Source of the DNA: a virus | Taxonomy: Duplodnaviria; Heunggongvirae; Uroviricota; Caudoviricetes | Virus record (IMG/VR): IMGVR_UViG_2778261250_000007 | Direction: 5' to 3' (one strand) | Length of the DNA: 34,974 nucleotides | Shown here: positions 2,856-26,566 of the stretch, piece by piece | Position numbering within the stretch: the first letter of the stretch is position 1 | Layout: each line of letters starts with the position of its first letter | Translations under genes and position numbers: made by a program | The notes under the pieces: model-generated | What the model was told of the DNA's origin: nothing | The model's database searches: none | The model's input: the letters and a program-made list of their open reading frames with translations, nothing else

Positions 2856-3074
2856 TCAAAGAGAGAGCGCCACCTGTCCTGATTTCATTGGATGCGGCTG
2901 AACCGGATTTGACTCTTTTGGCGTTGCAATCGAACGAACAAAAGTTTCATGGGTAACAAAAGTATGGCTGCAGTTAATGTTCTGGCACTGGTTGTAACGC
3001 TCTTTGGTCAATGAAGATACCTGAAAACTGCTGCGAGTATGGGCGGCACTTCCACACAGTGGGCAAATCATCAT
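2856..3074 (-). CDS. ogr: Late-gene transcriptional activator Ogr (zinc finger)
   Basis: 72-aa product MMICPLCGSAAHTRSS...QCQNINCSHTF with the C-x2-C...C-x4-C pattern typical of P2 Ogr. ATG at 3074 preceded by GGGGAGA; the track ORF is longer, and I chose the RBS-supported start. Confidence 0.8.
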   Translation of the reverse strand: MMICPLCGSAAHTRSSFQVSSLTKERYNQCQNINCSHTFVTHETFVRSIATPKESNPVQPHPMKSGQVALSL

Positions 3075-3164
3075 TTTTCGAGTTCTCCCCATTTTTGCTA
3101 AATTCACAATAATGATACCGCATTATTCCATTTTGCAAACTTAAAAGTTCTCCATTGCGAAGAA

Positions 3165-10002: not shown

Positions 10003-10078
10003 AGCGGCGAACCTCCTGATTGGATTAGGCTTCGCCCTATGTTGAAGTGATTGTGTCTGACAAGCAGCTAAGCGCAGT

Positions 10079-10096
10079 TGTACCGTTATTCACACA
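10079..10096. promoter_or_regulatory. Ogr-type late-promoter element TGT-N12-ACA upstream of FI
   Basis: TGTACCGTTATTCACACA, centred about 85 bp upstream of the FI ATG in the G-FI intergenic region. Shares TGTACCG...CACACA with the element between O and P. Confidence 0.45.
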
Positions 10097-10108
10097 AAAT
10101 GACGGTAT

Positions 10109-10522
10109 TTATCTGCTTGCAGGGAAAACAGGCCAAATAATATCAGGTGCGGTGCTGGTATCTGTTGCCGTCACAGCCTCGATATAATCCAGCACAACGT
10201 TAAGTCGGGTAGTTTCTTCTTGCGTCAGTTTGCGCCCGGCCTGCAGTTTTAACTGAATCACGCTGATATTGGCCATTGCTGCGTCTATCAGCGACTGTTT
10301 TTTCTGTTCAGCGTCAGCTACCAGTTCATCATGAGAACGTTCCGGAGTGGGTGGTGCAGTAAATCCCCCGTCTGAATACACCCAGCCGATTCCGGGCTGC
10401 TCACTGATATCAGAAATATTAATGAGCTGCAGATTATCCGACACAGTGAATTCATCCTCGCCATCCCAGACAATGACATTCACAACCATCCCATTTTCAA
10501 TAACTGCATATGACGCATTCAT
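10109..10522 (-). CDS. G: Tail fibre assembly protein (Tfa, gene G position)
   Basis: 137 aa from ATG at 10522 (MNASYAVIENG...), with GAGGAG upstream and overlapping the H stop. The C-terminus ...TATDTSTAPDIIWPVFPASR resembles the conserved Tfa C-terminal motif. Confidence 0.8.
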   Translation of the reverse strand: MNASYAVIENGMVVNVIVWDGEDEFTVSDNLQLINISDISEQPGIGWVYSDGGFTAPPTPERSHDELVADAEQKKQSLIDAAMANISVIQLKLQAGRKLTQEETTRLNVVLDYIEAVTATDTSTAPDIIWPVFPASR

Positions 10523-12441
10523 TATGCAAACTCCTCGATAATACAAACCCCATCAGCACCTTTCCCGCCCGTCATACTGGTTCCGCTATAACCTGCATCG
10601 TATGCACCACCTCCGCCTGAACCAAATGCCCTGCCTCTAACGCCACCGCCAGCGCCTGCGCGTCCACCGCCTCCCCAGTACGATGCACCGCCTTCACCGC
10701 TGACGCCGATATTCCCGGACTGACCGTCGCCTCCATCTCCACCAGTGATGCGGATATCGCCAATATTCGGTACGCCTCCGTTACCGCCGTTTGTGTTTGT
10801 GACTCCTACTTTTCCGGCGCCTTCACCACCAGGGGCTATTACCGATCCGAACGAGCTATCACCGCCCTTGAGGCCGTTCGTCGCACTAACGCCGCCAGCC
10901 CCACCTGCGCCGATAGTGACAGGATAACTATTCTGTGTCGGGGTCAGTATGGTGATTACTGTCCCTCCGGCCCCACCGCCAGCACCGAAAAACGTTTCAT
11001 TATTGGATGTAGCCTTGCAGCCGCCCCCTCCGCCACCGCCGCCAGTTATTGTGACCCTGATCCGTTTTGTTTCTGGTGATGGGGTATACGTACCTGATGA
11101 CGCGAAAGCCCGGGTACTCAGCCGGCGTCCCACGTATCCGCTTGTATCTCCCAAACCAAGATAACGAATAACCTCCTGTTTGCTTGTTTTAGCCAGAATA
11201 TCCCGTCCAACATTAGTCAGGGTTGTCAGGCTGGCTGTATCATTCCCCGTAAAATACGGTAGTTTGTCTGCCGCAGTGGCAAGGCCTGCCAGTGCGGTCA
11301 GTGTGGCGTCGGCAGGTTGTTTTCCATTGGCAAGGTCATATACAGCCTTCACGGCTTTTGGTGTGGCAGCCTGCGTTTCTGACGTGCTGTTAGTGGCGCT
11401 GCTGAGTTGCACGGTGCCTTTTACCGTCAGTGAAGCTGCAGGCACATCCGTTATCTGGCTCCATGGGTGCGTGTGACTGACAGGTGCCTTACCTGCTGCA
11501 AGGTCATATGCCGCCTTCACTGCCTTTGGTGTGGCAGCCTGCGTTTCTGACGTGCTGTTAGTGGCGCTGCTGAGTTGCACGGTGCCTTTTACCGTCAGTG
11601 AAGCTGCAGGCACATCCGTTATCTGATTCCACGGGTGTGTGTGACTGACAGGTGCCTTACCTGCTGCAAGGTCATATACCGCCTTCACTGCCTTTGGAGT
11701 GGCAGCCTGCGTTTCTGATGTGCTGTTAGTGGCGCTGCTGAGTTGCACAGTGCCTTTTACCGTCAGCGAGGCTGCAGGTACACCTGTTATCTGATTCCAC
11801 GGGTGTGTGTGACTGGCGGATGCTTTACCTGCTGCAAGATCATATGCAGCCTTTACAGCCTTCGGTGTTGCGGCCAGTATTTCGGATTCACTGTTGGTCG
11901 CACTGCTTAACTGAGTAAAACCTTTTGCGGTCAGCGAGGCGTCCGGGTGACGTCGTGACTGTTCGTGCTCTGATATTTTGTCATCCACATACTTGCGGGT
12001 TGCCAGCACTACGGCAGGGTCAATTTTCAGGGTGATATTGTCCGTACTGCTGGTAATCAGCACCATGCGCACGGTCTGGGTGCGCCCGCTGCCTTCAGCC
12101 AGTTGCGGCTTATAGCTTTCCGGGCAGTTGCCCACGGCAATTAGTGCCCCGGATTCATCAAACAGGCCCACTTCACGTATCCACCAACCGCCCTCGTTTT
12201 CAGGAATCACCTGTTCAGCAATAATCTGGCTGCTGTTTTGCGGGTCGATATAGAGCATATTCAGCGCAGCCCGGCGTTTCTCATTTACCAGTGCCGTCTG
12301 CTTTGCGTCCGGCGTTGGCAATACTCCGCCGCCATCGCCCACCGCCATATGGGTAATTTTTAGCGGCACACCGAGCGCGGCGGCGCTGGCAAGTTTCGCC
12401 GCGCCAATATCCGTCAGCAGGGTATAAAATTTTGTGCTCAT
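10522..12441 (-). CDS. H: Tail fibre protein H with internal tandem repeats and a glycine-rich C-terminal domain
   Basis: 639 aa. Conserved P2-H-like N-terminus (MSTKFYTLLTDIGAAKLASAAALG...), then about four copies of a 56-aa module (...TVKGTVQLSSATNSTSETQAATPKAVKAVYDLAAGKAPVSHTHPWNQITDVPAASL...), then a Gly-rich C-terminus including GGGGGGGG. Confidence 0.85.
   Translation of the reverse strand: MSTKFYTLLTDIGAAKLASAAALGVPLKITHMAVGDGGGVLPTPDAKQTALVNEKRRAALNMLYIDPQNSSQIIAEQVIPENEGGWWIREVGLFDESGALIAVGNCPESYKPQLAEGSGRTQTVRMVLITSSTDNITLKIDPAVVLATRKYVDDKISEHEQSRRHPDASLTAKGFTQLSSATNSESEILAATPKAVKAAYDLAAGKASASHTHPWNQITGVPAASLTVKGTVQLSSATNSTSETQAATPKAVKAVYDLAAGKAPVSHTHPWNQITDVPAASLTVKGTVQLSSATNSTSETQAATPKAVKAAYDLAAGKAPVSHTHPWSQITDVPAASLTVKGTVQLSSATNSTSETQAATPKAVKAVYDLANGKQPADATLTALAGLATAADKLPYFTGNDTASLTTLTNVGRDILAKTSKQEVIRYLGLGDTSGYVGRRLSTRAFASSGTYTPSPETKRIRVTITGGGGGGGGCKATSNNETFFGAGGGAGGTVITILTPTQNSYPVTIGAGGAGGVSATNGLKGGDSSFGSVIAPGGEGAGKVGVTNTNGGNGGVPNIGDIRITGGDGGDGQSGNIGVSGEGGASYWGGGGRAGAGGGVRGRAFGSGGGGAYDAGYSGTSMTGGKGADGVCIIEEFA
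11300..11935. repeat. Tandem 168-bp repeats inside tail-fibre gene H (three near-identical copies plus diverged flanking copies)
   Basis: The motif ctgcgtttct recurs at 11371, 11539 and 11707 (period exactly 168 bp = 56 codons) with near-identical surrounding sequence; diverged copies lie on either side. Confidence 0.7.
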
Positions 12442-13043
12442 GGATTCACTCTCATTGTGTCAATAACATGGACCGCCCCGCCTTCATGCGCGGTGCCACC
12501 GGAAATAATCGTTTCGTTGATATACGGATAGATGGTGATTTCTTCGCCAAGATAGCTGGCGGCTCCCACCCAATACGGGCCGCTGGTCTGCAGATTGATG
12601 GACATGCCGATCATGTGGCGGCTACATGGTTTGGCATCGCTTATCAGTCGCTCAAGTTCCAGATAGGTATCTTCAGTGATGCCCTGGTCCTGCACGCCGA
12701 TATCCAGGCGAAACGTGCCCGGTGCCTCTCCGGTTTGCCACCACTCAATAATGCGGATCAGAAAGCCGAACGGCTCCACCACCCGCCGCACGGCACTGGT
12801 GGTCCCTTTATGCTGATGAATATAAAAAGCATCCTTCACCACCTGGCGCTTGACGCTTTCTGTCCAGCCTTCGTCCCAGCGATCCACAGAGAACGCCCAG
12901 GCGAGATAAGGCAGGAAGCTGACCGGGCAGGTAGCCGGATTCCACAAGTCACGCAGCGGCACCTGCAGATCAGAAATCCCGCTGCACGTTTGCGCCAGTC
13001 GGCGCTCCAGTGAAGTTGACCCCGATGGCAGCAGACTATTCAT
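12438..13043 (-). CDS. I: Baseplate assembly protein I
   Basis: 201 aa, ATG at 13043, between J and H. Confidence 0.8.
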   Translation of the reverse strand: MNSLLPSGSTSLERRLAQTCSGISDLQVPLRDLWNPATCPVSFLPYLAWAFSVDRWDEGWTESVKRQVVKDAFYIHQHKGTTSAVRRVVEPFGFLIRIIEWWQTGEAPGTFRLDIGVQDQGITEDTYLELERLISDAKPCSRHMIGMSINLQTSGPYWVGAASYLGEEITIYPYINETIISGGTAHEGGAVHVIDTMRVNP

Positions 13044-13944
13044 CCGTTCCCCCGTTGGTCACGCTCCACTCCGTACATGATGCCGCCTGCGTTTTGTTCA
13101 AAACCACATCCGCCAGCGGCGAAGCCAGCTCCACACGCTGCACACCCTCAACATGCAGGGCGGCAAAGATGGCGCTACGGCGAATATCCCGACCAAGCCG
13201 CGTCTGACTGGCGATGTATTTCTGCAGGCTGGCTTTTGCCGCTGCCATTACCGGCTCTGCTTCCGGCCCCGGATAGAGAAAAATGGTGGCTTCCACGCGA
13301 TACGGGATGATTTCTGCGCTGCGAACCGTCAGACGGTCAGCCACCGGGCGAACGTTCTCACTGTTCAGAGCTTTTTCCACCACGTCCAGCAGGTCTTTTT
13401 CTGCTGTTCCGTCGCCTTCACGGCTTAGGACCGTTAGCACCACCTCTGCAGGTGCCGGGCTGGTTGCACTGGCATCCGCCACCCGACCGTCGGCGCTTCG
13501 GGCATGAAATTCATAAGCTGCGGTTGGCCCCGCAACCGAAAGCCCTTCAAAAGCCGCAGGCACACGCAGGCGTAACGCTTCATCGCTTTCCATCACAGCC
13601 GCAACGGGTGGCACAGCGTCATTATCAGCAGGCGTCACCGTCAGGCGTTTCACGTTGTAGTTGGCAGCGAGCTGGTCAAGATCGCCGCCCATTGCGTAAG
13701 CCACCATCACAGCATGCGCGGCTTCGTTAATGCGCTGGCGCAGAAGCAACTCACGGTAAGCGTTCTCCTGAAGCAATTTGGTGACGGGTTCAGATTCCAG
13801 TTCCAGCGTGCGGATCACTGCTTCCTGCTCATCTTTCGGATGAAGCGCAACAAATTCGGCCTTGCGTTCGGCAAGCAGCGTCTCAAAGTCCGGCACATCC
13901 ACAATCTGCGGCGCAGGCAACTGCGAAAGGTCAATCACTGCCAT
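13036..13944 (-). CDS. J: Baseplate protein J
   Basis: 302 aa from ATG at 13944 (MAVIDLSQLPAPQIV...) with AGGAG upstream. The track ORF extends 13 codons further upstream. Confidence 0.85.
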   Translation of the reverse strand: MAVIDLSQLPAPQIVDVPDFETLLAERKAEFVALHPKDEQEAVIRTLELESEPVTKLLQENAYRELLLRQRINEAAHAVMVAYAMGGDLDQLAANYNVKRLTVTPADNDAVPPVAAVMESDEALRLRVPAAFEGLSVAGPTAAYEFHARSADGRVADASATSPAPAEVVLTVLSREGDGTAEKDLLDVVEKALNSENVRPVADRLTVRSAEIIPYRVEATIFLYPGPEAEPVMAAAKASLQKYIASQTRLGRDIRRSAIFAALHVEGVQRVELASPLADVVLNKTQAASCTEWSVTNGGTDE

Positions 13945-14290
13945 TCTCTGCTCCTGTTGATACGGAAAGGGAAACAGGCACACCGTTATTACGCCGCCCG
14001 GTCAGCTCCACCACCATTGAACCGTCAAAATTGCTGTTAAGGGTGATGGAATCCAGCGTCAGCCGTGGCTCCCAGCGACTCAGCGCCACATACACTGCCG
14101 ACATGACCTGCAGGCGTAATGCCGGATTTTGTGGCTGGTCTATCAGTGCCGACAGCAGGGAACCATATTCCCGACGGGCAATGCGGCTACCCTGCGGCGT
14201 CAGCAAAATGTCCCGTACCGACTGGCGCAGATGGTCAATATCAGTAATGGCTTTACCGCTGGTATTGTTCATCCCGCTATAAAGCGTCAT
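13931..14290 (-). CDS. W: Baseplate wedge protein W
   Basis: 119 aa, ATG at 14290; synteny V-W-J. Confidence 0.8.
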   Translation of the reverse strand: MTLYSGMNNTSGKAITDIDHLRQSVRDILLTPQGSRIARREYGSLLSALIDQPQNPALRLQVMSAVYVALSRWEPRLTLDSITLNSNFDGSMVVELTGRRNNGVPVSLSVSTGAENGSD

Positions 14291-14865
14291 ACCGGGCCTC
14301 CGGTTGTATCGCCGCCTTTCAGGACGCCAGTATGCTGATGCGCATCAACCACGATCCCGTTAGAACTCATCGCTCCGCCGCCCTGAGTAACGCCACCATT
14401 GACCACCACTTCGCTGTTAATACGCGTGCACTCAGCCTCCAGCACAAACTCACTGGTTTTCAGGGTGATGTTATCGGCAGCCTCAATGACCATGGATTTG
14501 ATGCCCCTGACATACCAGCGCCCGGTGGCAGGTTCGTATTCAAACCAGCCACCGTCAGGATGTTCTGTCACGCAGGCATCCGCCGACGTCGACGGTGGTG
14601 CGAACTGATTCGAATAGACAGCGGGCAGCGCAAAGGCGGTTTCCAGATTGCCGCCCAGACTCAGCAGCACCACCTGCTCACCTTCCGATGGTCGCCACCA
14701 TGTGCGGGCATTCCCGGCACGCAGCGTCAGCCAGCTGATCCAGTTGGTTTCAAGCTCGCCCGTTTTCACCCGGCAAAGCCAGTGTTCCCGGTCCACTTCG
14801 GTGACTATCCCAGTGCGGATCAGGTTGGTGATAAGGCGCATGATTTCGGTTAGTTGTGCGTTCAT
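14287..14865 (-). CDS. V: Baseplate spike/hub protein V
   Basis: 192 aa, ATG at 14865, first gene of the V-W-J-I-H-G block. Confidence 0.8.
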   Translation of the reverse strand: MNAQLTEIMRLITNLIRTGIVTEVDREHWLCRVKTGELETNWISWLTLRAGNARTWWRPSEGEQVVLLSLGGNLETAFALPAVYSNQFAPPSTSADACVTEHPDGGWFEYEPATGRWYVRGIKSMVIEAADNITLKTSEFVLEAECTRINSEVVVNGGVTQGGGAMSSNGIVVDAHQHTGVLKGGDTTGGPV

Positions 14866-14911
14866 AAGGGGAGAATGACAGAAACAATTAATGAGAAGTA
14901 GCGTTGATATT

Positions 14912-14929
14912 TGTATGAAACTCTATACA
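14912..14929. promoter_or_regulatory. Ogr-type element TGT-N12-ACA upstream of V (late promoter PV)
   Basis: TGTATGAAACTCTATACA centred about 55 bp upstream of the V ATG, the same spacing as the element upstream of P. It overlaps a plus-strand sigma70-like pair TTGTAT(14911-14916)-18-TAGAAT(14935-14940) that could drive the cargo gene. Confidence 0.4.
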
Positions 14930-15002
14930 AAAACTAGAATTTCCAAGTCTTCGCAGATATATTATGTGGAGTTTTCTCATTGACATTATCCTAGGTATCA
15001 GA

Positions 15003-16709
15003 ATGGAACATCTAAAGCAACTACTAAAAAAAACTGAATTTATCGAAAAATACGGCATTGGGAATGCACATCTATTATGGGCCTTAGGTTTATATTTGGA
15101 CGAATCAGACTTTGACAAATTAGCCTCAGATGGTTTGACTGACGGAGGTAATGATAAAAAAATAGATTTCATTACTGTAATAAATTCAACTTTATTTATT
15201 GCGCAAGGTTATTACTGCACCCAAGATAAATTGAAAATTGTTGCGCCAGCAAATAAAGCTTCCGATCTCAACACTGCTTTAGCATGGATTATTTCAGGTT
15301 CTGGTCAATCACCAAATGAAAAATTAAGAGCTAAAATTGCTGAAGTTAGAAAACTTATTGACGATAATGAAATAGAAGCTGTAGAGCTTCTATATATTCA
15401 CAATTGTGCTGAGTCAGAACACGTAAGAGTTGAATTAGAAACATGTCGTGACTATTTAGCAAATCGCTTCTCTAATAAAGAGATAGAAGTAACCTGCAAA
15501 GAGTTGGGCGTATATAGCCTTGAAAAATTATATATTGCACTTTCGCAACAAATTGTAGTAAAAGATGATATAATTTTTGATGGTACTATTGTAGACTCGG
15601 TAGAAGGTGATGGTTGGACCTCACGTGTTGGCTTCGCTAATGGCAGTTGGCTGAACTCACTTTTCAAAACCCACGGCGCTGAATTATTCTCAGCTAACTA
15701 CCGTGGTTTTATGGGGTTGAGTAAAAGAAGAAAAATAAACTCTTCCATTAGAAGTACGGCAGAGACAACTCCTAAAGACTTTTTTGTTTTTAATAATGGA
15801 GTATCAATCCTTACAACAAAATTCAGACAAGATAATAATAAGGCAATTTTAGAGGGTATATCCATTATCAATGGAGCGCAAACTACTGGTTCCATAGGCT
15901 CTGTGCAAGATATACAAAAACTTGATGGATTGAAAGTACTATGTAAAGTTATTGAATGCAATGACGCAGATAAAGTAAAAAAAATAGTTCAATTTAATAA
16001 TACTCAAAACCATATCACGACCTGGGATCATTATTCAAATAGTCCAGAACAAAAGCAGGTAGAAGAAGAGTTTTCGACCTTAGGCTATATTTACTCGTTA
16101 AAAAGAGGCTTTGAGAATACTGGTTCTTTATTTGGTATTGAGTCAGTTGCACAACCCTTAATAGCTCTACATGGAGATTATGCAAGCGCAAACAGGGGTA
16201 AAAACTATGTTTTCGACACTAAAACTGCTTATGACAATGCATTTCATGAATCAAAAGCCCAACATATTCTATGTGCATATACCATTTCGAAAGCAATAGA
16301 AAAAGTCAAGGCACAGATTAAAAATAAAGATAATAAAATAACATCTGATGAAGACAACTTACTTTTCCTGCAAAACCTCAAGTCTCGCTTCTTTTTGATA
16401 TCTATAGTCGGTGAAATTCTGGAGGAACTGGCCGACAAACCATTAAATAAAAAGTTTGTTAAATATAAATATAATACTTCACTTGCAACAAACAATTCGC
16501 TAGACGACTTAATTAACCTATGGTCGCCAGTTATCGCTGCCATTCTACCCTTTATCATTAGAGTTACAGGTCAAGATCTAACAACTTACTTATCTGAAAC
16601 AGAAGATCCTTTGCATACCGTTGCCAGTGAAGTTAAAAACAATCTCAGATCCTTAAAAGCGTTTCAACCTATAGAACCATTAAGGATCTTAGCTGAAAAC
16701 TTAGAGTAA
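15003..16709 (+). CDS. AIPR-family (abortive infection phage resistance)-like protein; AT-rich cargo gene between S and V
   Basis: 569 aa from ATG 15003 (an alternative in-frame ATG at 14964 gives 581 aa). The motifs LTDGGNDKKIDF near the N-terminus and INGAQTTGSI match my recollection of AIPR-domain signatures. Strongly AT-rich and inserted in an otherwise conserved late-gene block. Confidence 0.55.
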   Translation: MEHLKQLLKKTEFIEKYGIGNAHLLWALGLYLDESDFDKLASDGLTDGGNDKKIDFITVINSTLFIAQGYYCTQDKLKIVAPANKASDLNTALAWIISGSGQSPNEKLRAKIAEVRKLIDDNEIEAVELLYIHNCAESEHVRVELETCRDYLANRFSNKEIEVTCKELGVYSLEKLYIALSQQIVVKDDIIFDGTIVDSVEGDGWTSRVGFANGSWLNSLFKTHGAELFSANYRGFMGLSKRRKINSSIRSTAETTPKDFFVFNNGVSILTTKFRQDNNKAILEGISIINGAQTTGSIGSVQDIQKLDGLKVLCKVIECNDADKVKKIVQFNNTQNHITTWDHYSNSPEQKQVEEEFSTLGYIYSLKRGFENTGSLFGIESVAQPLIALHGDYASANRGKNYVFDTKTAYDNAFHESKAQHILCAYTISKAIEKVKAQIKNKDNKITSDEDNLLFLQNLKSRFFLISIVGEILEELADKPLNKKFVKYKYNTSLATNNSLDDLINLWSPVIAAILPFIIRVTGQDLTTYLSETEDPLHTVASEVKNNLRSLKAFQPIEPLRILAENLE

Positions 16710-16715
16710 CAATTC

Positions 16716-16748
16716 TTGGGTGGCATTAAAACGCCACCCAACCATTTT
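16716..16748 (+). terminator. Intrinsic terminator downstream of the AIPR-like gene
   Basis: ttgggtggc / gccacccaa, a 9-bp stem with an 8-nt loop, followed by ccattttat, directly after the stop at 16707-16709. Confidence 0.5.
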
Positions 16749-16761
16749 ATATAATTGATTA

Positions 16762-17205
16762 TTATTTCAACCATCCTATTAAAACATCATAAATATGTTT
16801 TTCAATCCGTTCATTATTGCCAAGTAAACGCCGCTCTGCATAGCGGACCACCGGGCCTTTGCAACTGACGCGATCACGCAGGCCGTAATGGTGAACGCGG
16901 GCAATGCGCTGTACGTTACCTTCAAACTGCACGCTGGCAGAATCGGCGCTGGCGGCAGTTTTCAGGTATTTTGTGGTGCGCAGCTTTGTAAACATCTGAC
17001 GTTTGATGCGCCCCTTTTTACTACGTGCTGTTACCCTTCGCGGTTCATAGCTGCTGCCATCAGGATTACGCTGCATCCTGATGTTCTGCTGCTGTGTCCG
17101 GCGCAGTTCCTGCGCCAGCTGGCGCATCATGCGGCTTCTTGCGGCTGGCTCCAGATTCGCCAGCAAGGCACTCAGCCAGTCGTCCACCTTCTGCAATTCA
17201 GCCAC
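16762..17205 (-). CDS. S: Tail completion protein S
   Basis: 147 aa; GTG start at 17205 overlapping the R stop; synteny R-S. Confidence 0.8.
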   Translation of the reverse strand: MAELQKVDDWLSALLANLEPAARSRMMRQLAQELRRTQQQNIRMQRNPDGSSYEPRRVTARSKKGRIKRQMFTKLRTTKYLKTAASADSASVQFEGNVQRIARVHHYGLRDRVSCKGPVVRYAERRLLGNNERIEKHIYDVLIGWLK

Positions 17206-17629
17206 GTTTCACCATCCATATTTCTTCAGGTTCATCGGGTTCCGCTACAGCTTCAACACTAGACACACTGCCGTCAGTGCTGACCAGCACACGCTCCGTC
17301 AGTTGCAGGTTAAGACTGATATCACAGACATCGTTGCGCAAAATATCCACCTCAAAGGTGAATAACTTTTCCCGTAACGCCGGGTTATTGATGGCATCAG
17401 ACTGGTTATCCCGCAGCCACAATAAAACCGGGGCCATCAACAGATTCTGGTCGCCGCTGAAATCCTCAATCACCACGTTCAGGGTGTAACGGTACTCCCA
17501 TGACATGGAGCTGGCCCCCGTAGCAACCAGCGAACCGTTATCCACAAACAGATGCAGTTTGTCCGGGTTATTGCGGACATAAGGCACCGCTTTATTGAGG
17601 GCGTGGCGCAGGGATTGTGGTTTGTTCAC
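17198..17629 (-). CDS. R: Tail completion protein R
   Basis: 143 aa from GTG at 17629 with AGGAG 8 nt upstream (GTG-NKPQSLRHALNKAV...). The track ORF starts 7 codons upstream at TTG. Confidence 0.8.
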   Translation of the reverse strand: MNKPQSLRHALNKAVPYVRNNPDKLHLFVDNGSLVATGASSMSWEYRYTLNVVIEDFSGDQNLLMAPVLLWLRDNQSDAINNPALREKLFTFEVDILRNDVCDISLNLQLTERVLVSTDGSVSSVEAVAEPDEPEEIWMVKRG

Positions 17630-17882
17630 TGTTTCGCTCCTGACACGCAATAATCATGTCCACTTTGTCTGCACAGACCGCCCAGGCGGCCTCCGTTTCA
17701 TCCAGCAATGCGTTCAGATCACCGTTAGTGCGCGGCGTTGCCTGATCCAGCCGACACGGCGTCACTCGCGGACACCCACTGACGGTAAGCTGCACCTCCG
17801 GTGAATGCCGGACGTTTCCGCAGCCGGATAATGTCAGCAGGCAAAGGAGTATCAGCCCAGCGGCGTAAATCCTCGTTCTCAC
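17592..17882 (-). CDS. lysC: LysC-like outer-membrane lipoprotein (Rz1-type o-spanin), embedded in and extending past lysB
   Basis: 96 aa with a signal peptide and lipobox (LLTLSGC). GTG start at 17882 with GAGGAA upstream. Lies in an alternate frame overlapping the 3' half of lysB and the start of R. Confidence 0.55.
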   Translation of the reverse strand: MRTRIYAAGLILLCLLTLSGCGNVRHSPEVQLTVSGCPRVTPCRLDQATPRTNGDLNALLDETEAAWAVCADKVDMIIACQERNSEQTTIPAPRPQ

Positions 17883-18153
17883 GTTTCAGTTCCTCAATCC
17901 GGCGTTGTCGTTGTCTCAGCAGTGCACTGGTCTGTTCTGCTTCGGCGTAGAGCCGCGCCTGCTCCCGATTGTTGGTTTCAGCCAGAATGGACAGACTGAT
18001 CAGCTGGCTATTTTTCTTCGTTAGTTCGTGCGCTTTACTTTTCAGCGCCGCGCGCTGCGTTTCGATGGTGTGGCTGGCGCTGTTAAGCCGCCACGACTGC
18101 CAGCCCAGCGCAACGAGTGCCAGCGCCGCCACTACCGCCAGCACACGTGTCAT
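17725..18153 (-). CDS. lysB: LysB-like inner-membrane spanin (Rz-type)
   Basis: 142 aa with an N-terminal TM segment (VLAVVAALALVALGW) followed by a charged coiled-coil region. ATG at 18153 overlaps the endolysin stop. Confidence 0.7.
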   Translation of the reverse strand: MTRVLAVVAALALVALGWQSWRLNSASHTIETQRAALKSKAHELTKKNSQLISLSILAETNNREQARLYAEAEQTSALLRQRQRRIEELKRENEDLRRWADTPLPADIIRLRKRPAFTGGAAYRQWVSASDAVSAGSGNAAH

Positions 18154-18665
18154 AGTCCAGCTCCTTTAAGGCACCAGGCCATCTCCCGCGCACGGCGGTT
18201 ATCCAGCCCCTGATTAAACACACCTTTTACATAAACCCAGCGCGGCAACTGTCGGCACGCATCCACCCAGCGCCGCTGATTGAGCAATTTAACCAGCGTG
18301 GAGCTGCAGGCATTGCCCGTCCCCACGTTGAAGGCAAACGACACCGTAGCGTCATACACCTTCTGTGGTGGCTGTTGCTTCACACACCTTTCCAGTGCCC
18401 GCTCCACACGTAGCACGTTGGAGATCAGCCCTTCTGCTGCCTGTCGTTCCGTGATTGTTTTGCCGGGAATGACGCCCGATGTATTACCAATGCCGTCGGT
18501 CCAGACACCCGCGCTGCACTGATACGGCTGCAGACGACAGCCTTCGTAATCGGCAATCAGTTTCAGCCCCTCCACTGAGGTGTGAAGCTGCTGAAAACCC
18601 GGCAGCGTGGCAGCAATAGCCAGCACGGCCCCGACAAGGCAGCGTTTAACGATTGATGGATTCAT
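18150..18665 (-). CDS. K: Endolysin (lysozyme, K position) with N-terminal signal-anchor-release-like segment
   Basis: 171 aa; hydrophobic N-terminus LVGAVLAIAATLPGF followed by a lysozyme-like body. Confidence 0.8.
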   Translation of the reverse strand: MNPSIVKRCLVGAVLAIAATLPGFQQLHTSVEGLKLIADYEGCRLQPYQCSAGVWTDGIGNTSGVIPGKTITERQAAEGLISNVLRVERALERCVKQQPPQKVYDATVSFAFNVGTGNACSSTLVKLLNQRRWVDACRQLPRWVYVKGVFNQGLDNRRAREMAWCLKGAGL

Positions 18666-18861
18666 AGTCCTCCCGCGAGATCTGCCCGTCGCGCAGAAGC
18701 TGGTAGGCTTTGTGTTTGTAGTACCAGTTGATAGCCAGCATCAGCACACCAATCATCAGGCCGCCCAGCGTTGAGGCATCCTTGATGGACAAATCGCCCA
18801 GCCAGGCCAGCACAACGGCGATGCAGTACGTGATAAAGGCGCTGATTCGCTCAAGCGTCAT
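18646..18861 (-). CDS. Holin (small two-TM protein)
   Basis: 71 aa with two hydrophobic helices and a charged C-terminus, immediately upstream of the endolysin with a 20-nt overlap. Confidence 0.6.
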   Translation of the reverse strand: MTLERISAFITYCIAVVLAWLGDLSIKDASTLGGLMIGVLMLAINWYYKHKAYQLLRDGQISREDYESINR

Positions 18862-18864
18862 AAT

Positions 18865-19068
18865 TCAGCCCCATAGCTGGACGGTCTGCACGGTGGTGGT
18901 GGTCGGAATGTCCGGCAGCTCCACCTGCAGCCCGTGAGGTAAAAAGGGGCCATATTCGGCAAGCCCCGGATTTGCCTTCAGTACCTGCTCCGTGACACCC
19001 TGCGTGCGCCCGTAATGACGCCAGCAAAGCGCGTCCACCGTGTCATACTGATGCGCACGCACTTTCAT
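18865..19068 (-). CDS. X: Tail protein X
   Basis: 67 aa (MKVRAHQYDTVDALCWRHYGRTQG...); ATG overlaps the L stop (ATGA). Confidence 0.8.
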   Translation of the reverse strand: MKVRAHQYDTVDALCWRHYGRTQGVTEQVLKANPGLAEYGPFLPHGLQVELPDIPTTTTVQTVQLWG

Positions 19069-19532
19069 CAGATAAGCTCCACTGTGCAGTGCGGCGCATC
19101 CTGCACCCGGCTGATGGCCCAGCGGGCGTCACGCCACAAATCACCGCTGGATTCCGCCAGTTCCTCGCCTCGCTTCACACCGGATGCCGTGGCGTCATAG
19201 TCCTGGTATCGTTCGTTGAGCATGGCGCGTGCCCAGCAGTAAACCGCGTTGAAATAGTGCTGAATGCGCTCACTTTTGCCGTCCAGCTGTTCCGCCGGAA
19301 CCTCAGCCAGCGACACATACCCCAGCATCTGCTGGCGTCTGCGAAACTCATACAGCTCTGCGTTGACCTCCGAAATTGCCGACAGCGCAACCTGCTTTAA
19401 ACGCGGCTGCGTCACCGTGCCGTCAGTGCGCATGACACTGCGAAACTCCGACAGGTCCACATCAGGCCAGAACGGCGTATTTCTAATGATTTCCGCCTGT
19501 TCCGGTGCCTGTTCTGGCGCAACAAACTTCAT
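19068..19532 (-). CDS. L: Capsid completion protein L
   Basis: 154 aa from ATG at 19532 (MKFVAPEQ...) with AGGAG upstream. The track ORF begins further upstream at GTG. Confidence 0.8.
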   Translation of the reverse strand: MKFVAPEQAPEQAEIIRNTPFWPDVDLSEFRSVMRTDGTVTQPRLKQVALSAISEVNAELYEFRRRQQMLGYVSLAEVPAEQLDGKSERIQHYFNAVYCWARAMLNERYQDYDATASGVKRGEELAESSGDLWRDARWAISRVQDAPHCTVELI

Positions 19533-19627
19533 GCTGCTTTCTCCTGAAATAGAGGGCGGTGGACGGGGTTTTGATGTGGCAGTGCCTTTCGCCACCCCGT
19601 GCCGCCCGTGCGCGGGGGCACGTTCTG

Positions 19628-20278
19628 TCAGCGGCTGTCATTACGCAGTCTGCGCTCCAGCTGCTGTTTGTCTTTTTTCACGCCACAGCGGGGATCGAGC
19701 TGTAACGCATGGTTGAGATGGTTAAGGGCAGAAGCCGGATTGCTTTCACTTAGGACAGCGCCAATCGCTTTATGCAGACGCGCTCGTGACTGGTCCGGCA
19801 TATCCAGACCGTCTGTCAGCTCCAGCGTCTGCAACAACAGATCGGCATCAAAGCCGGTGGCGGCAAGCATTGCGCTCTGCGCCGCGTCTGCCATTTCCTC
19901 TGCCAGCACGGTCTGCACATTGCGGTTACCCAGCGGCATCACCCAGCCATGACGCAGGGCATGACGCCCGATCTCCAGCGCCCCGGCATAATCTCCGGCA
20001 TCAATGCGCCACAGCATCACGTACATCAGCACGTCATCCTGCTGTGCGCCTCCAGCAGTCAGGACACCCTCTGCCCAGGCGGCGTACTTCGGCAGCAGCT
20101 CCACCTTAATTTCCGCTTTTTTCACCGTGGACTGAACGCCCTTGAGACGGCGGCGGTCTTCCGCCAGTTGCAGCAGCATCAGGTCATAACCCGACGCGTG
20201 GCGAACACTGCCGCCCTCGCGGGCGGCCTGTTCAGCCTGAACGCGCAGGCGATGCTGCCGTGCGGGACTCAGGCTCAT
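19628..20278 (-). CDS. M: Terminase endonuclease (small) subunit M
   Basis: 216 aa, ATG at 20278, downstream of N. Confidence 0.8.
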   Translation of the reverse strand: MSLSPARQHRLRVQAEQAAREGGSVRHASGYDLMLLQLAEDRRRLKGVQSTVKKAEIKVELLPKYAAWAEGVLTAGGAQQDDVLMYVMLWRIDAGDYAGALEIGRHALRHGWVMPLGNRNVQTVLAEEMADAAQSAMLAATGFDADLLLQTLELTDGLDMPDQSRARLHKAIGAVLSESNPASALNHLNHALQLDPRCGVKKDKQQLERRLRNDSR

Positions 20279-20281
20279 GGT

Positions 20282-21337
20282 TTATGCTCCGGCTTCTGCG
20301 GCGGCGCTGAAGTCACCAATCTGGATGTTTTCCACCAGTGCTGCGCAGCGGTAGTCCTCAACCACATAGGCTTCGTTAACTGATTCAAAGTTTTCAATCC
20401 GGTCACGTTTCGGGTTGTCGATAACCGAACGGCGGCGGGTGTCCTCCTGCCAGTAAATGGACAGGTTATCCAGACGGGTGATCAGCAGCGCATTCGGCGG
20501 GAAGAACGGCGCACGCACGGCCTGCAGGCCACCCATGCGTTTCTGACTGATGATCATATCGGCAGCCAGTTTTTCACTGTTTTCCTGGTCTTTGTTGACC
20601 AGCGGGAAATACTTGTCAGACAGCAGCTCACGACCACAAATCACCACCAGATCGTCATCGTCCTGGTAGACCACGTCGATAAGCTCATTGACCGCATCCA
20701 TCACCACGGCGTCCAGGTTGGCATATTCGCCACCTTTCCCGACTTTCACCGCACCCGGTGTGGTTTCACCGCCCGTGGTGGTGCTGCCCATGACGTGATC
20801 CGGTGCATCCTCACGGATTTTCTGCAGCCAGCCTTTGTTCACATCCTGCAGCAGCGGGTTTTCGCTACGGTTAGAGGTTTTCGCACGCTTCACGCCGTTA
20901 AAGCCGATCATGATGCGGTCCAGCGCCTGACGTTTCACGATGGCGTTACGGATACGCACCTGGAAATCCTGAAACTTCGCCCACAGGTCCAGCTTCGCGT
21001 AGGTCAGCACCGTATCAAAGTTGGTCTGTTCGCATTTGTATTCCACATCGACCATCAGCGTCGGATCGACAGGTTCACGCTCTTTCGCGGTGGTGTCAGT
21101 GGTTCCGGCAATGGTGCTGCCAACCCCCAGCCCCAGCAGCTGACCGGACTGCTCAGTCACTGGCGTGACGTTAATCAGCGTCAGGAAAGCGGCGGACTGC
21201 TGGATCTGGTCTTCCAGCGTCTGCTGCACAGACGGCTCTACAGTGAACTTGCTGGACAGTTCTTCAACTGCCACACCGTTCAGACGCGCCAGTTGCTGCA
21301 GGTAAGCGTTAAAAGCAAAGCGGGTATTCTTCTTCAT
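20282..21337 (-). CDS. N: Major capsid protein N
   Basis: 351 aa, ATG at 21337; synteny O-N-M-L. Confidence 0.9.
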   Translation of the reverse strand: MKKNTRFAFNAYLQQLARLNGVAVEELSSKFTVEPSVQQTLEDQIQQSAAFLTLINVTPVTEQSGQLLGLGVGSTIAGTTDTTAKEREPVDPTLMVDVEYKCEQTNFDTVLTYAKLDLWAKFQDFQVRIRNAIVKRQALDRIMIGFNGVKRAKTSNRSENPLLQDVNKGWLQKIREDAPDHVMGSTTTGGETTPGAVKVGKGGEYANLDAVVMDAVNELIDVVYQDDDDLVVICGRELLSDKYFPLVNKDQENSEKLAADMIISQKRMGGLQAVRAPFFPPNALLITRLDNLSIYWQEDTRRRSVIDNPKRDRIENFESVNEAYVVEDYRCAALVENIQIGDFSAAAEAGA

Positions 21338-21353
21338 CAGGTTTTGTGCTCCA

Positions 21354-22187
21354 TCAGCAATTGGTCAGAGTGTCAGCGGGGGCGTTACCGCCTGTTACAC
21401 GCTGGCGGTAGTCCTGGCGGCTGTCTTCATGACTCAGCTTATTCACCAGTTCGTTAAAGGCGGTTTGCTGCTCCTGCAGAGCAGTCTCCAGCTCAGACAG
21501 GCGTTCTTCCTGCTCAGACAGGGATTTTTCGGTGCGTGCGCTCAGGTTCTGCTGCTCAGTGGCGACCAGCTCCACGGCCTTATGCACATCAGCGAACCGG
21601 GCGTCATCGGACTGCTCTTTTTTGGTAAACAACGCCGTGACGCGGGCAAACAGGGACGGTTTGTCATCCTGGACTTCTTCCAGTTCGATCACCGTTTCCT
21701 CTGCAGCGGTAAAAAGATTGGCGGGATTCTGCTTGCGGTTTGCCAGCGGGTTATGGGCTGCACTGGCGCTGAATGTCAGCATTTCCGTACCCAGACTGGC
21801 AGGATCATCAGTGGCAGCCAGGCCAACCAGGTAGGCTTTGCCCGTATCAGCGAACTTCGGGCTGACTTCCATAGAGGTGAATAATTTCTGGCCTTTTTTC
21901 ACCAGTTCCACCAAGGACTCCGTTGGCTCAACGTCGGCATACAGCGCCATCTTGCCTGCCAGCGGACCTTCCGTGATTTCTTCAGCAAACAGCGCCGTCA
22001 CTTTGCCGTAGCGGTTAAAGGTGCTGTCCGGCAGATAAGACTTGATGTGCTCAAGGTTAATCAGCGCGGTATACACCGCCGGGTTGTAGCTGGCTGCCAT
22101 CTGTTCCAGCCATTCACGCTGGATTTCGCGTCCGTCGGTAGTGGCACCTTCCACCCCGATGCGAAAACGCTTTGCTTTCACTGTCAT
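21354..22187 (-). CDS. O: Capsid scaffolding protein O
   Basis: 277 aa with an acidic coiled-coil C-terminus; ATG at 22187; divergent from P. Confidence 0.85.
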   Translation of the reverse strand: MTVKAKRFRIGVEGATTDGREIQREWLEQMAASYNPAVYTALINLEHIKSYLPDSTFNRYGKVTALFAEEITEGPLAGKMALYADVEPTESLVELVKKGQKLFTSMEVSPKFADTGKAYLVGLAATDDPASLGTEMLTFSASAAHNPLANRKQNPANLFTAAEETVIELEEVQDDKPSLFARVTALFTKKEQSDDARFADVHKAVELVATEQQNLSARTEKSLSEQEERLSELETALQEQQTAFNELVNKLSHEDSRQDYRQRVTGGNAPADTLTNC

Positions 22188-22265
22188 GAGCCGTGCTCCG
22201 TTAGAAAAAACTTACTGGAGCCTTATGGTTGCGGTGATGGGGGCAGTGAAACAATGCGCGGTATT

Positions 22266-22283
22266 TGTACCGACAACCACACA
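22266..22283. promoter_or_regulatory. Ogr-type late-promoter element TGT-N12-ACA in the divergent O/P promoter region
   Basis: TGTACCGACAACCACACA, about 87 bp from the O ATG and about 55 bp from the P ATG. Confidence 0.45.
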
Positions 22284-22329
22284 AACCGCAGGCGGGGAAA
22301 GCCTTCATTCAAGGCTGTAGGTTTGTGCC

Positions 22330-24096
22330 ATGAACACCACACTGACACCCGCAGATCTCGATCCCCGTCGGCAGGCCATGCTGCTGTACTTTCAGGGATA
22401 CCGCGTAGCCCGCATTGCTGAAATGCTGGGCGAGAAAGTTGCAACTGTTCACAGCTGGAAAAAACGCGACAAGTGGGGTGATTATGGGCCGCTGGATCAG
22501 ATGCAGCTCACCACCGCCGCACGCTATTGCCAGCTCATTATGAAGGAGCACAAAGAAGGGAAAGATTTCAAAGAAATTGACCTGCTGGCGCGCCAGTCGG
22601 AGCGCCACGCGCGGATCGGCAAGTTTAACAATGGCGGCAACGAAGCCGACTTAAACCCTAACGTCGCCAACCGCAACAAAGGCCCACGCCGTCAACCGGA
22701 AAAGAATGTCTTCACCGATGAACAGATTAAGAAGCTGGAAGAAATCTTCCATTCCTCCATGTTCAACTACCAGCGCCACTGGTGGGAAGCCGGAAAAACC
22801 AACCGCATCCGCAACCTGCTGAAGTCACGCCAGATCGGCGCGACCTTTTACTTTGCCCGTGAAGCCCTGATTGACGCCCTGCTTACCGGACGTAACCAGA
22901 TTTTCCTTTCTGCCAGTAAGGCACAGGCTCACGTTTTTAAGCAGTACATCATCGACTTCGCCAAAGAAGTCGAGGTGGAGCTGAAAGGCGATCCGATGGT
23001 GCTTCCTAACGGAGCCACGCTTTACTTCCTCGGCACCAATGCCCGCACGGCCCAGAGTTACCACGGCAACCTGTATCTGGATGAATATTTCTGGATACCG
23101 AAATTCCAGGAACTGCGCAAAGTGGCTTCCGGTATGGCTATTCACAAAAAATGGCGACAAACCTATTTTTCCACGCCATCCAGCCTGACACACAGTGCTT
23201 ATCCGTTCTGGTCCGGTGCGCTGTTCAACCGTGGGCGCAACAAAGCCGATAAGGTGGACATCGACCTGTCCCACAGCAATCTGGCCCCCGGCCTGCTGTG
23301 CGCAGACGGGCAATACCGCCAGATAGTCACCGTGGAAGATGCAGTGCGCGGCGGATGTAACCTTTTCGACCTTGACCAGTTGCGCATGGAGTACAGCCCG
23401 GACGAATACCAGAACCTGCTGATGTGCGAGTTTGTGGACGATCTCGCGTCCGTGTTTCCGCTCAGCGAGCTGCAGGCGTGCATGGTGGACAGCTGGGAAG
23501 TCTGGACCGACTTTCATGCACTGGCTCTGCGCCCGTTTGGCTGGCGCGAAGTGTGGATCGGTTATGACCCGGCAAAAGGTACGCAAAACGGCGACAGCGC
23601 CGGATGCGTGGTGGTGGCACCGCCAGCCGTGCCGGGCGGTAAGTTCCGCATTCTTGAGCGTCACCAGTGGCGCGGGATGGACTTCCGCGCCCAGGCTGAC
23701 GCCATCAAAAAACTGACCGAACAGTACAACGTGACCTATATCGGTATCGACTCGACCGGCGTTGGTCACGGGGTTTATGAGAACGTGAAAGCGTTCTTTC
23801 CTGCCGTCCGGGAGTTTGTCTACAACCCCAACGTTAAAAACGCCCTGGTACTCAAGGCCTACGACATTATCAGCCACCGCCGTCTGGAGTTTGACGCCGG
23901 GCACACCGACATTGCGCAGTCATTCATGGCTATCCGTCGCGCCACCACCGCCAGCGGCAACCGCCCGACCTATGAAGCCAACCGCAGCGAAGAAGCCAGC
24001 CACGCCGATCTGGCCTGGGCAACAATGCACGCACTGTTTAACGAACCGCTGCAGGGCGAGTCCGCCAATACCAGCAATATTGTGGAGATTTTTTGA
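22330..24096 (+). CDS. P: Terminase ATPase (large) subunit P
   Basis: 588 aa, ATG at 22330; a P2-type large terminase by size and position. Confidence 0.9.
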   Translation: MNTTLTPADLDPRRQAMLLYFQGYRVARIAEMLGEKVATVHSWKKRDKWGDYGPLDQMQLTTAARYCQLIMKEHKEGKDFKEIDLLARQSERHARIGKFNNGGNEADLNPNVANRNKGPRRQPEKNVFTDEQIKKLEEIFHSSMFNYQRHWWEAGKTNRIRNLLKSRQIGATFYFAREALIDALLTGRNQIFLSASKAQAHVFKQYIIDFAKEVEVELKGDPMVLPNGATLYFLGTNARTAQSYHGNLYLDEYFWIPKFQELRKVASGMAIHKKWRQTYFSTPSSLTHSAYPFWSGALFNRGRNKADKVDIDLSHSNLAPGLLCADGQYRQIVTVEDAVRGGCNLFDLDQLRMEYSPDEYQNLLMCEFVDDLASVFPLSELQACMVDSWEVWTDFHALALRPFGWREVWIGYDPAKGTQNGDSAGCVVVAPPAVPGGKFRILERHQWRGMDFRAQADAIKKLTEQYNVTYIGIDSTGVGHGVYENVKAFFPAVREFVYNPNVKNALVLKAYDIISHRRLEFDAGHTDIAQSFMAIRRATTASGNRPTYEANRSEEASHADLAWATMHALFNEPLQGESANTSNIVEIF

Positions 24097-26516: not shown

Positions 26517-26538
26517 AAGAAAGATCCTTTTTCTTTTT

Positions 26539-26566
26539 ATAATACTGCAACTACACCTCAAGTCAA
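26539..26566 (-). promoter_or_regulatory. Sigma70-like promoter for the TM/TIR operon (TTGACT-16-TATTAT)
   Basis: Minus-strand -35 TTGACT (26566..26561) and -10 TATTAT (26544..26539) with a 16-nt spacer, about 22 nt upstream of the ATG at 26516. Confidence 0.45.

Follow-up and report, generated by a model that had tools for sequence, protein, structure and literature searches.

Do the TGT-N12-ACA dyads found in front of the late genes FI, V and O/P mark the sites through which this element switches on its late operons, or are they matches of the kind that any genome of this size contains? The window, which here means the whole stretch of 34,974 nt that was analysed, is a P2-like prophage of E. 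coli (Peduoviridae, Elveevirus/Fels-2-like). Control of the late (head, tail and packaging) genes by an Ogr-type activator is already well known, and to that extent the finding is correct but ordinary. On the sequence evidence set out below, we put the probability at about 0.9 that the three dyads are the sites of the window's own Ogr-family zinc-finger activator, which would switch on four late operons.

Dyads in the three late intergenic regions

A motif scan of the whole window placed three dyads exactly at the coordinates given in the original prediction:

10079-10096, upstream of FI: dyad TGTACCGTTATTCACACA
14912-14929, upstream of V: dyad TGTATGAAACTCTATACA
22266-22283, between O and P: dyad TGTACCGACAACCACACA

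The bare motif had been expected by chance about once per 4 kb, and this estimate holds. There is no global enrichment of TGT-N12-ACA in the whole window (9 matches found, 9.94 ± 2.8 expected from shuffles), and the remaining six of the nine matches fall in coding or host DNA. Both observations are compatible with the three matches being chance occurrences of a short degenerate motif with no regulatory role. Their placement argues against this. The late intergenic regions (10003-10108, 14866-14963 and 22188-22329) together make up 346 bp (1% of the window), and there is one match in each of them, so that the proposed non-random placement is borne out (P about 1.5e-5); when these regions were shuffled 20,000 times, a match in all three never occurred. 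When ~35,000 window positions were scored with a weight matrix whose 25 training sites all came from other phages, the three dyads ranked first to third, at 20.3 (FI), 19.5 (O/P) and 14.8 bits (V). The mean shuffle maximum of this matrix is 12.0 bits, and the score of the V site is near the highest third-best shuffle score, 15.1.

The comparative data point the same way, with a fixed dyad-to-ATG distance in dozens of otherwise unrelated upstream sequences. In relatives, 61/61 distinct sequences upstream of FI have kept the perfect dyad, at 78.5-85.5 bp from the ATG. At V, a perfect dyad stands 54.5-57.5 bp from the ATG in each of about 12 upstream cassettes that are unrelated to one another. 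For the O/P dyad, the first related loci, found by the O protein, had 98-100% identity, too high for footprinting, and show no more than that the TGT, the ACA and the −10 hexamers do not vary; in 79 close relatives the TGT and ACA are invariant and variation is confined to the central spacer. These sequence comparisons effectively refute the chance reading, which we consider exceedingly improbable.

A fourth exact match, TGTGCCATGAACACCACA at 22324-22341, lies over the P start codon and was absent from the original list. We rejected it as an activator site: its 12.2 bits is about the mean shuffle maximum, and its TGT is changed to TAT in one close relative. It is treated here as chance or as a by-product of coding and promoter constraints.

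The activator gene and the proposed layout of the late promoters

The element itself encodes a cognate zinc-finger gene of the Ogr/Delta/B family:

2856..3074, minus strand: ogr homologue, 72 aa (MMICPLCGS...), CX2CX22CX4C zinc finger, predicted late-gene activator

Alignment to P2 Ogr favoured a start at the second Met cluster; the protein shares 51% identity with P2 Ogr across all 72 residues and matches the Pfam family Ogr_Delta (PF04606) at 78 bits (cut-off 26.3). PMC3931495 gives TGT-N12-ACA as the P2 late-promoter consensus and describes an activator with the CX2CX22CX4C motif. Perfect matches to this partial dyad lie 5′ of the core promoter at all three sites of the window. The assignment of the dyads as Ogr-type late sites is supported by the annotated positions in P2 and 186, by the Ogr homologue of the window, and by a motif and spacing conserved in relatives whose surroundings have diverged.

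TGT/ACA half-sites are recognised by many dimeric regulators, and another regulator, from host or phage, might bind the dyads in place of the Ogr homologue. We regard this as highly improbable, since the dyads agree with the P2/186 system in their N12 spacing, in the T and A that flank them, in their distance to the genes and in their co-occurrence with an Ogr-family gene. CRP-type sites have the form TGTGA-N6-TCACA, and a site of this type was rejected because the spacing does not fit.

Read as Ogr sites, the dyads may be assigned to operons by comparison with the two annotated systems. P2 (PF, PV, PO and PP, with Ogr) has the same four operons in the same order, and its RefSeq record marks where the activator binds and where transcription begins at pF, at pV and at a common pO/pP site, with the window dyads at the corresponding places. 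The record of coliphage 186, in which the activator is protein B, annotates one B site for the divergent pV/p12 and one for pJ, and the window dyads correspond to these as well. Gene order, homology and distances thus give one site per late operon (F, V, O and P homologues), with a common site for O and P. The suggestion that a single dyad may serve both divergent promoters agrees with the P2 and 186 records, each of which has one annotated site for the pair.

The distances from dyad centre to ATG had been put at about 86 bp for FI and O and about 55 bp for V and P; we measured 85.5 (FI), 87.5 (O), 55.5 (V) and 55.5 bp (P). P2 is nearly equal at FI (82.5 bp) and V (56.5 bp), and 186 is similar at its FI and O homologues (81.5 and 87.5 bp). 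The P2 dyads are imperfect (TGT-N12-CCA at PF and PO/PP, poorer at PV), whereas those of the window are perfect, and the dyad-to-ATG promoter sequences of P2 and the window are unrelated. Unlike the window, 186 has only a half-site-like match upstream of its V homologue (orf32). The closest relatives are the late regions of Fels-2 and SEN8 (Felsduovirus) and of Cartapus and 4LV2017 (Elveevirus). Cartapus is 96.8% identical to the window in DNA across the late region, and these relatives have an O-P intergenic region and a PF promoter nearly identical to those of the window, with the same 55.5-bp geometry at V and P.

The promoter geometry proposed for the window phage is taken from what is annotated for P2 and 186. 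The three sites would serve four late promoters, each site (TTGTrY-N8-rYACAA) being centred ~55 bp 5′ of the transcription start. PF would drive FI-FII-E-T-U-D and PV would drive V-W-J-I-H-G, while the single central site would act on the divergent PO (O-N-M-L-X-lysis-R-S) and PP (P-Q). When 39 late promoters, including the four of the window, were aligned on the dyad centre, a conserved A appeared at +44.5 and a conserved T at +48.5. These are the two key positions of a −10 hexamer, and the hexamer has the form nAnnnT at 43.5-48.5 bp from the centre. A consensus scan found no recognisable −35 element and no self-sufficient sigma-70 promoter at PF, at PV or in the O-P region. Each late promoter would have a weak −10 hexamer without a −35 element, and an activator at the dyad would therefore be needed to recruit RNA polymerase.

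The features at PF are:

10078..10097, minus strand: predicted PF activator site, TTGTGTGAATAACGGTACAA on the transcribed strand; core dyad 10079-10096, centre 10087.5
10039..10044, minus strand: predicted PF −10 hexamer CAACAT, which fits the conserved A/T signal of the 39 aligned late promoters
10032, minus strand: predicted PF transcription start (A), giving a 30-nt leader with the Shine-Dalgarno sequence AGGAGG and the FI ATG at 10002

The consensus scan of the FI-upstream DNA (9900-10300) detected no complete sigma-70 promoter. A hairpin around the FI dyad was considered as a terminator of the V operon and rejected, as the fold is not significant (z = −1.6) and has no T-run.

The features at the central site, on its O side, are:

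22265..22284, no strand assigned: predicted common PO/PP activator site, TTGTACCGACAACCACACAA; core dyad 22266-22283, centre 22274.5
22225..22230, minus strand: predicted PO −10 hexamer AACCAT, placed by geometry and fitting only after a 1-bp shift
~22219 (±3), minus strand: predicted PO transcription start, giving a leader with the Shine-Dalgarno sequence GGAG and the O ATG at 22187

As at PF, the consensus scan revealed no complete sigma-70 promoter, here in the O-P intergenic DNA at 22100-22450.

The V promoter and the exchanged S-V cassette

The V dyad had been described as adjoining an AIPR-like cargo insertion. The proximity is confirmed, but the dyad is in fact part of the exchanged cassette. 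The features are:

14870..16855, plus strand: exchanged low-GC cassette with an AIPR/AbiU-like gene, the complete PV promoter and the 3′ end of S
14911..14930, minus strand: predicted PV activator site, TTGTATAGAGTTTCATACAA on the transcribed strand; core dyad 14912-14929, centre 14920.5
14872..14877, minus strand: predicted PV −10 hexamer CATTCT, positioned from the 39-promoter alignment
14865, minus strand: predicted PV transcription start, the A of the V ATG; the mRNA would be leaderless, and there is no Shine-Dalgarno sequence

The dyad and the core promoter are placed inside the swapped cassette because homology with Cartapus stops at 14869, 4 nt 5′ of the V ATG; it restarts at 16856. The cassette has a GC content of 32-35%, compared with 51% for the window. 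Its AIPR/AbiU-like gene has a coding sequence that extends to 16709 and a probable start at 15003, and is recognised by Pfam AIPR (93 bits) and by PADLOC as AbiU (E = 5e-28). The V-upstream cassette carries no cargo in Fels-2, a 176-aa hypothetical gene in Cartapus and AIPR/AbiU in the window; because of this difference the PV promoter of the window, including the interior of the dyad, is wholly unlike that of Fels-2 or Cartapus. The allele of the cassette in E. coli S88 is 76% identical and keeps TTGT and ATACAA, with 8 of the 12 spacer bases different; it also keeps the half-site spacing and the −10 A/T. A stop codon directly precedes the ATG of the S88 allele that is equivalent to window position 15003.

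The V dyad might also control the divergent AIPR/AbiU gene, either as a bidirectional activator site of the kind proposed at O/P or through occlusion of a cargo promoter by Ogr. Between its centre and the probable AIPR start (15003) there are 82.5 bp, a spacing of the FI/O class, and a possible sigma-70 promoter (TTGTAT-18-TAGAAT, 14911-14940) overlaps the dyad. That candidate promoter, however, failed the consensus scan. On the cargo side, none of the candidate hexamers at 43.5-48.5 bp from the centre (TATGTG, ATGTGG and TGTGGA) has the form nAnnnT, and ten other cassettes share no geometry, their distances from dyad to cargo start ranging from ~25 to 100 bp. We consider control of the AIPR/AbiU gene in the window distinctly unlikely. 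A bidirectional V site that drives AIPR as a general rule was rejected, given the absent cargo-side hexamer and the inconsistent cargo starts across the ten cassettes.

Predicted starts of the V and P mRNAs

The two distance classes lead to different predictions for translation. At FI and O the predicted start would leave a leader of ~30 nt with a Shine-Dalgarno sequence, and at V and P it would fall on the A of the ATG and yield leaderless mRNAs. The 55-bp class would then be a geometry of its own and not a shortened 86-bp class. The V mRNA, as in the P2 record, and here also the P mRNA are predicted to be leaderless because the dyad-to-ATG spacing is 55.5 bp. The features on the P side of the central site are:

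22318..22323, plus strand: predicted PP −10 hexamer TAGGTT (P2 counterpart TAGCCT)
22330, plus strand: predicted PP transcription start, the A of the P ATG, which would leave the mRNA leaderless

The V and P hexamers stand at −12 to −7 relative to their ATGs. P2 gene V is a classic leaderless mRNA; a literature search for a statement to this effect returned nothing usable. The P2 RefSeq record places the V transcription start at the first base of the V coding sequence, an annotated start that matches the one predicted for the window. In P2 the P transcription start is annotated at 3016, 7 nt after the hexamer TAGCCT, and the window P ATG aligns with the N-terminus of P2 P. P2 has its P ATG 78.5 bp from the dyad with a 23-nt leader, whereas the window has it at 55.5 bp with no Shine-Dalgarno sequence; the P homologue of 186 likewise has a leader (78.5 bp).

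Alternatively, the central dyad may activate PO only, with a P promoter that is differently organised and starts ~14 nt 5′ of the ATG, leaving a short leader. The sequence TTCATT at 22304-22309 could act as its −10 hexamer and an AGG 8 nt before the P ATG as a weak ribosome-binding site, and the P mRNA of P2, 186 and PSP3 has a 23-nt leader with a Shine-Dalgarno sequence. Fels-2 and SEN8, however, have kept TAnGTT at −12 to −7 and not TTCATT, and P2 and 186 put the P start 55.5 bp from the common site. At least ten phages of several genera place the P ATG 55.5-57 bp from the dyad and lack a Shine-Dalgarno sequence there, an arrangement seen in Fels-2, SEN8, Cartapus, a Dagavirus, a Yersinia phage, Ralstonia RSY1, phiCTX and two Burkholderia phages. 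Phages with the 78.5-bp P spacing carry GAGG. A short-leader P promoter is unlikely on this evidence, and we retain the common site with a leaderless P mRNA as the preferred prediction.

In Ralstonia RSY1/RSA1, phiCTX and Burkholderia P2-like phages, a TGT...ACA dyad separates the divergent O and P and has its centre 56-57 bp from the P ATG. Their dyads have a 13-nt spacer compared with 12 in the window, and the late-promoter dyad of RSY1 is TGTTGT-N13-ACAACA (PMC5694545). Across relatives, both V and P combine the absence of a Shine-Dalgarno sequence with a rigid spacing between promoter and ATG. We lean slightly towards a two-part generalisation: that the 55.5-57 bp spacing marks leaderless V (baseplate) and P (large terminase) mRNAs in most P2-like phages, from E. 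coli to Burkholderia, with the 23-nt P leader of P2, 186 and PSP3 as the exception, and that the essential V promoter (dyad and −10) travels in an exchangeable S-V defence cassette, each new cassette having to bring or rebuild an Ogr site in exact register with the V ATG.

The late transcription units of this E. coli prophage can now be annotated with confidence, with three activator sites, four promoters and predicted starts. The bare motif is no more frequent than chance predicts, yet a simple position-aware rule picks out the Ogr sites reliably. It is a testable prediction that the V mRNA and, in the lineage of the window, the P mRNA begin with AUG. The defence-gene hotspot between S and V contains an essential late promoter, which sets limits on cassette exchange there, and one may ask whether Ogr, if it binds at PV inside the hotspot, disturbs the expression of the defence gene next to it.

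Late gene order and the activator gene

The ORF map and the closest phage records show that the late genes are arranged as in P2-like phages but run in reverse:

ogr, D, U, T, E, FII, FI, then G, H, I, J, W, V: minus strand
cargo gene, after V: plus strand
S, R, lysis genes, X, L, M, N, O, after the cargo gene: minus strand
P, Q, after O: plus strand
2856-3074, minus strand: Ogr homologue of 72 aa with a CX2CX22CX4C motif in the ORF

The window matches Escherichia phage Cartapus (Peduoviridae, Elveevirus) best, with 96.8% identity, and the same DNA is also present in E. coli chromosomes, indicating that the window is an E. coli prophage. In P2, the zinc-finger protein Ogr (CX2CX22CX4C) activates the P, O, V, and F operons through the consensus TGT-N12-ACA, which has been carried to other P2-like phages (PMC3931495; PMC5694545). 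Across its full length the window homologue shares 51% identity with P2 Ogr, and it matches the Pfam Ogr_Delta family with 78 bits (cut-off 26.3). Judged by its sequence, this protein is the activator matching the dyads.

At the ogr end the prophage is flanked by a plus-strand ORF (935-2620) for a 561-aa multi-pass membrane protein that looks like a host gene, so the att site (prophage-host junction) is expected between ~2620 and 2856. Directly past Q, the minus strand has two ORFs (25168-26561; 205 and 258 aa). The main defense hotspot described for P2-like phages, which separates the portal gene from the replication genes (PMC13586616), is at the corresponding position.

Number, placement, and conservation of the dyads

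An exact search of the 34,974-bp window for the inverted repeat TGT-N12-ACA returned 9 matches, compared to 9.94 ± 2.8 expected from dinucleotide-preserving shuffles. The motif by itself therefore occurs at chance rate, in agreement with the estimate in the original prediction. The three dyads proposed there as Ogr-type late promoter sites (10079-10096, 14912-14929, and 22266-22283) are among the nine, and the argument that their placement exceeds chance was borne out. The three late regions make up 346 bp, 1% of the window, and each contains one dyad:

10003-10108: FI-upstream region, one dyad
14866-14963: V-upstream region, one dyad
22188-22329: O-P intergenic region, one dyad

At the observed motif rate this arrangement has P ~1.5e-5, and 0 of 20,000 shuffles of the late regions gave matches in all three. 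Distances from dyad center to ATG were 85.5 (FI), 55.5 (V), 87.5 (O), and 55.5 bp (P), as anticipated.

We compared nine genomes, which represent six genera (the window, Cartapus, P2, 186, PSP3, SEN8, Fels-2, and two Yersinia phages), and found that the spacing between a TGT-N12-(A/C)CA dyad and each late gene is consistent: 80.5-85.5 bp from the FI ATG and 85.5-97.5 bp from the O ATG; for the V ATG it is 55.5-56.5 bp in six of the nine, with poorer matches in P2, 186, and PSP3. In a set of 80 viral contigs whose FI proteins are 89-100% identical to that of the window, all 61 distinct upstream sequences had a perfect dyad 78.5-85.5 bp from the FI ATG. The strongest comparative test comes from 80 contigs with V proteins 96-97% identical, whose upstream sequences fall into ~12 mutually unrelated types; every type has a perfect TGT-N12-ACA whose center is 54.5-57.5 bp from the V ATG, most often 55.5 bp. 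In more distant P2-like phages (Ralstonia RSY1, phiCTX, and Burkholderia phages) the O-P intergenic dyad has a spacer one base longer, TGT-N13-ACA, with its center still 56-57 bp from the P ATG.

A symmetrized weight matrix was built from 25 sites of other phages, leaving the window and Cartapus-type sequence out of training. The three dyads rank 1, 2, and 3 in the window (20.3, 19.5, and 14.8 bits), against a mean maximum of 12.0 and a mean third-best score of 9.3 in shuffled sequence, the highest third-best being 15.1. A fourth exact match, TGTGCCATGAACACCACA (22324-22341), covers the start codon of P together with its predicted transcription start. It scores 12.2 bits, equal to the mean of the shuffle maxima, and in one close relative the TGT reads TAT. 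By these measures it is probably a chance occurrence; it may be a second, low-affinity Ogr site at the P start.

Promoter geometry and predicted leaderless mRNAs

Alignment of 39 late promoters on the dyad center gave extended half-sites, T-TGT-R-Y ... R-Y-ACA-A, with a conserved A at +44.5 and T at +48.5. From their positions, these bases are putatively the second and sixth of a −10 hexamer at 43.5-48.5, which places the transcription start 55.5 bp from the dyad center.

Anatomy of the four late promoters, from the window sequence and the geometry of the 39-promoter alignment (transcription starts deduced from the two)
PF, minus strand: dyad center 10087.5; −10 CAACAT, 10044-10039; predicted start A at 10032; 30-nt leader with AGGAGG; FI ATG at 10002
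PV, minus strand: dyad center 14920.5; −10 CATTCT, 14877-14872; predicted start 14865, the A of the V ATG; no leader, no Shine-Dalgarno sequence
PO, minus strand: dyad center 22274.5; −10 AACCAT, 22230-22225; predicted start ~22219 (22216-22222); leader carries GGAG; O ATG at 22187
PP, plus strand: dyad center 22274.5, shared with PO; −10 TAGGTT, 22318-22323; predicted start 22330, the A of the P ATG; no leader, no Shine-Dalgarno sequence

No complete sigma-70 promoter was found in the FI-upstream or O-P intergenic regions, which fits activator-dependent promoters.

The P2 RefSeq record annotates one activator-binding site (3057-3087) for pO and pP, with transcription starts at 3127 for O and 3016 for P. 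The pV site (10239-10266) has its start at 10308, the first base of the V coding sequence, and the pF site (17555-17583) has starts at 17626-17628. Read from the P2 sequence, these sites are imperfect dyads (TGTGCTGTCGATTAGCCA at PF, TGTGTCAGTGATAAGCCA at PO/PP, and a poorer match at PV) centered 55.5-58.5 bp from the annotated starts. In the 186 record, a single B-protein site is given for the divergent pair pV/p12, and pJ has a site of its own. The proposal that one dyad serves both O and P thus has precedent in the single shared site of each record.

For both P and V, alignment to the P2 protein begins at residues 3-5 of the N-terminus, indicating that the start codons are homologous. In P2, 186, PSP3, and Klebsiella phage Kp4884-2, P has a 23-nt leader with GAGG and a center-to-ATG distance of 78.5 bp, whereas in ten phages (the window, Cartapus, Fels-2, SEN8, a Dagavirus, Yersinia phage 06.16-2, RSY1, phiCTX, and two Burkholderia phages) the P ATG directly follows the hexamer, 55.5-57 bp from the dyad center. 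This geometry predicts a leaderless P mRNA in the window. The window hexamer TAGGTT corresponds to TAGCCT in P2, 7 nt before the annotated P start, and we consider it unlikely that P transcription begins ~14 nt upstream of the predicted position instead. The 55.5-bp class is predicted to correspond to leaderless V and P mRNAs.

Upstream of PF, the stop codon of a minus-strand tail-fiber assembly ORF (10109-10546) lies just 12 bp from the dyad, and no terminator was found between the two (10097-10111). A GC hairpin and a T-run immediately precede the FI dyad in many relatives; at this site Cartapus carries an invertase and alternative fiber genes. In the window phage, transcription of the V operon probably continues into the F operon.

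The V dyad and the exchanged cassette

The V dyad had been described as adjacent to an AIPR-like cargo insertion. The AIPR label stands (Pfam AIPR 93 bits; PADLOC AbiU E = 5e-28), but the dyad lies inside the insertion rather than beside it. Homology to Cartapus ends 4 nt before the V ATG, at 14869, and restarts at 16856, inside S; the segment between has a GC content of 32-35% versus 51% for the window, so the PV dyad, spacer, and −10 hexamer are part of the exchanged cassette. E. coli HUM3355 (NZ_CP093317) contains DNA identical to this cassette. Since S ends at 16762, ~31 last codons of this tail-completion gene were swapped with the cassette. A 9-bp GC-rich hairpin between the convergent AIPR and S genes (16716-16741) is likely a two-way terminator ending the cargo transcript and the O operon.

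TTGT, ATACAA, and their spacing are unchanged in the 76%-identical cassette allele of E. coli strain S88, as are the A and T of the −10 hexamer, while 8 of the 12 spacer bases of the PV dyad differ, a pattern that would be expected under selection on a binding site. The AIPR/AbiU ORF opens at ATG 14964. In S88 the ATG equivalent to 15003, from which NCBI annotates the S88 gene, is immediately preceded by a stop codon, and the true start is probably 15003 (MEHLKQ...).

The V dyad could also drive the cargo gene, in the manner of the O/P site, but this is unlikely: no suitable −10-type hexamer was found on the cargo side of the dyad, and cargo start positions are inconsistent in ten other cassettes. 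A candidate sigma-70 cargo promoter (TTGTAT-18-TAGAAT, plus strand, 14911-14940), whose −35 would be the left half of the V dyad, failed a consensus scan. If this promoter is real, Ogr binding could switch off the defense gene late in infection.

Placement, the P2 and 186 sites, the Ogr homologue, conserved spacing, and the weight-matrix ranks together support the proposed reading of the three dyads as Ogr-type late promoter sites of a P2-like prophage. Ogr-type late control is already well characterized, as is the annotation of one site for two promoters in P2 and 186, and the window adds another case. The refinements, predicted leaderless mRNAs and a PV inside a swapped defense cassette, are modest in novelty.
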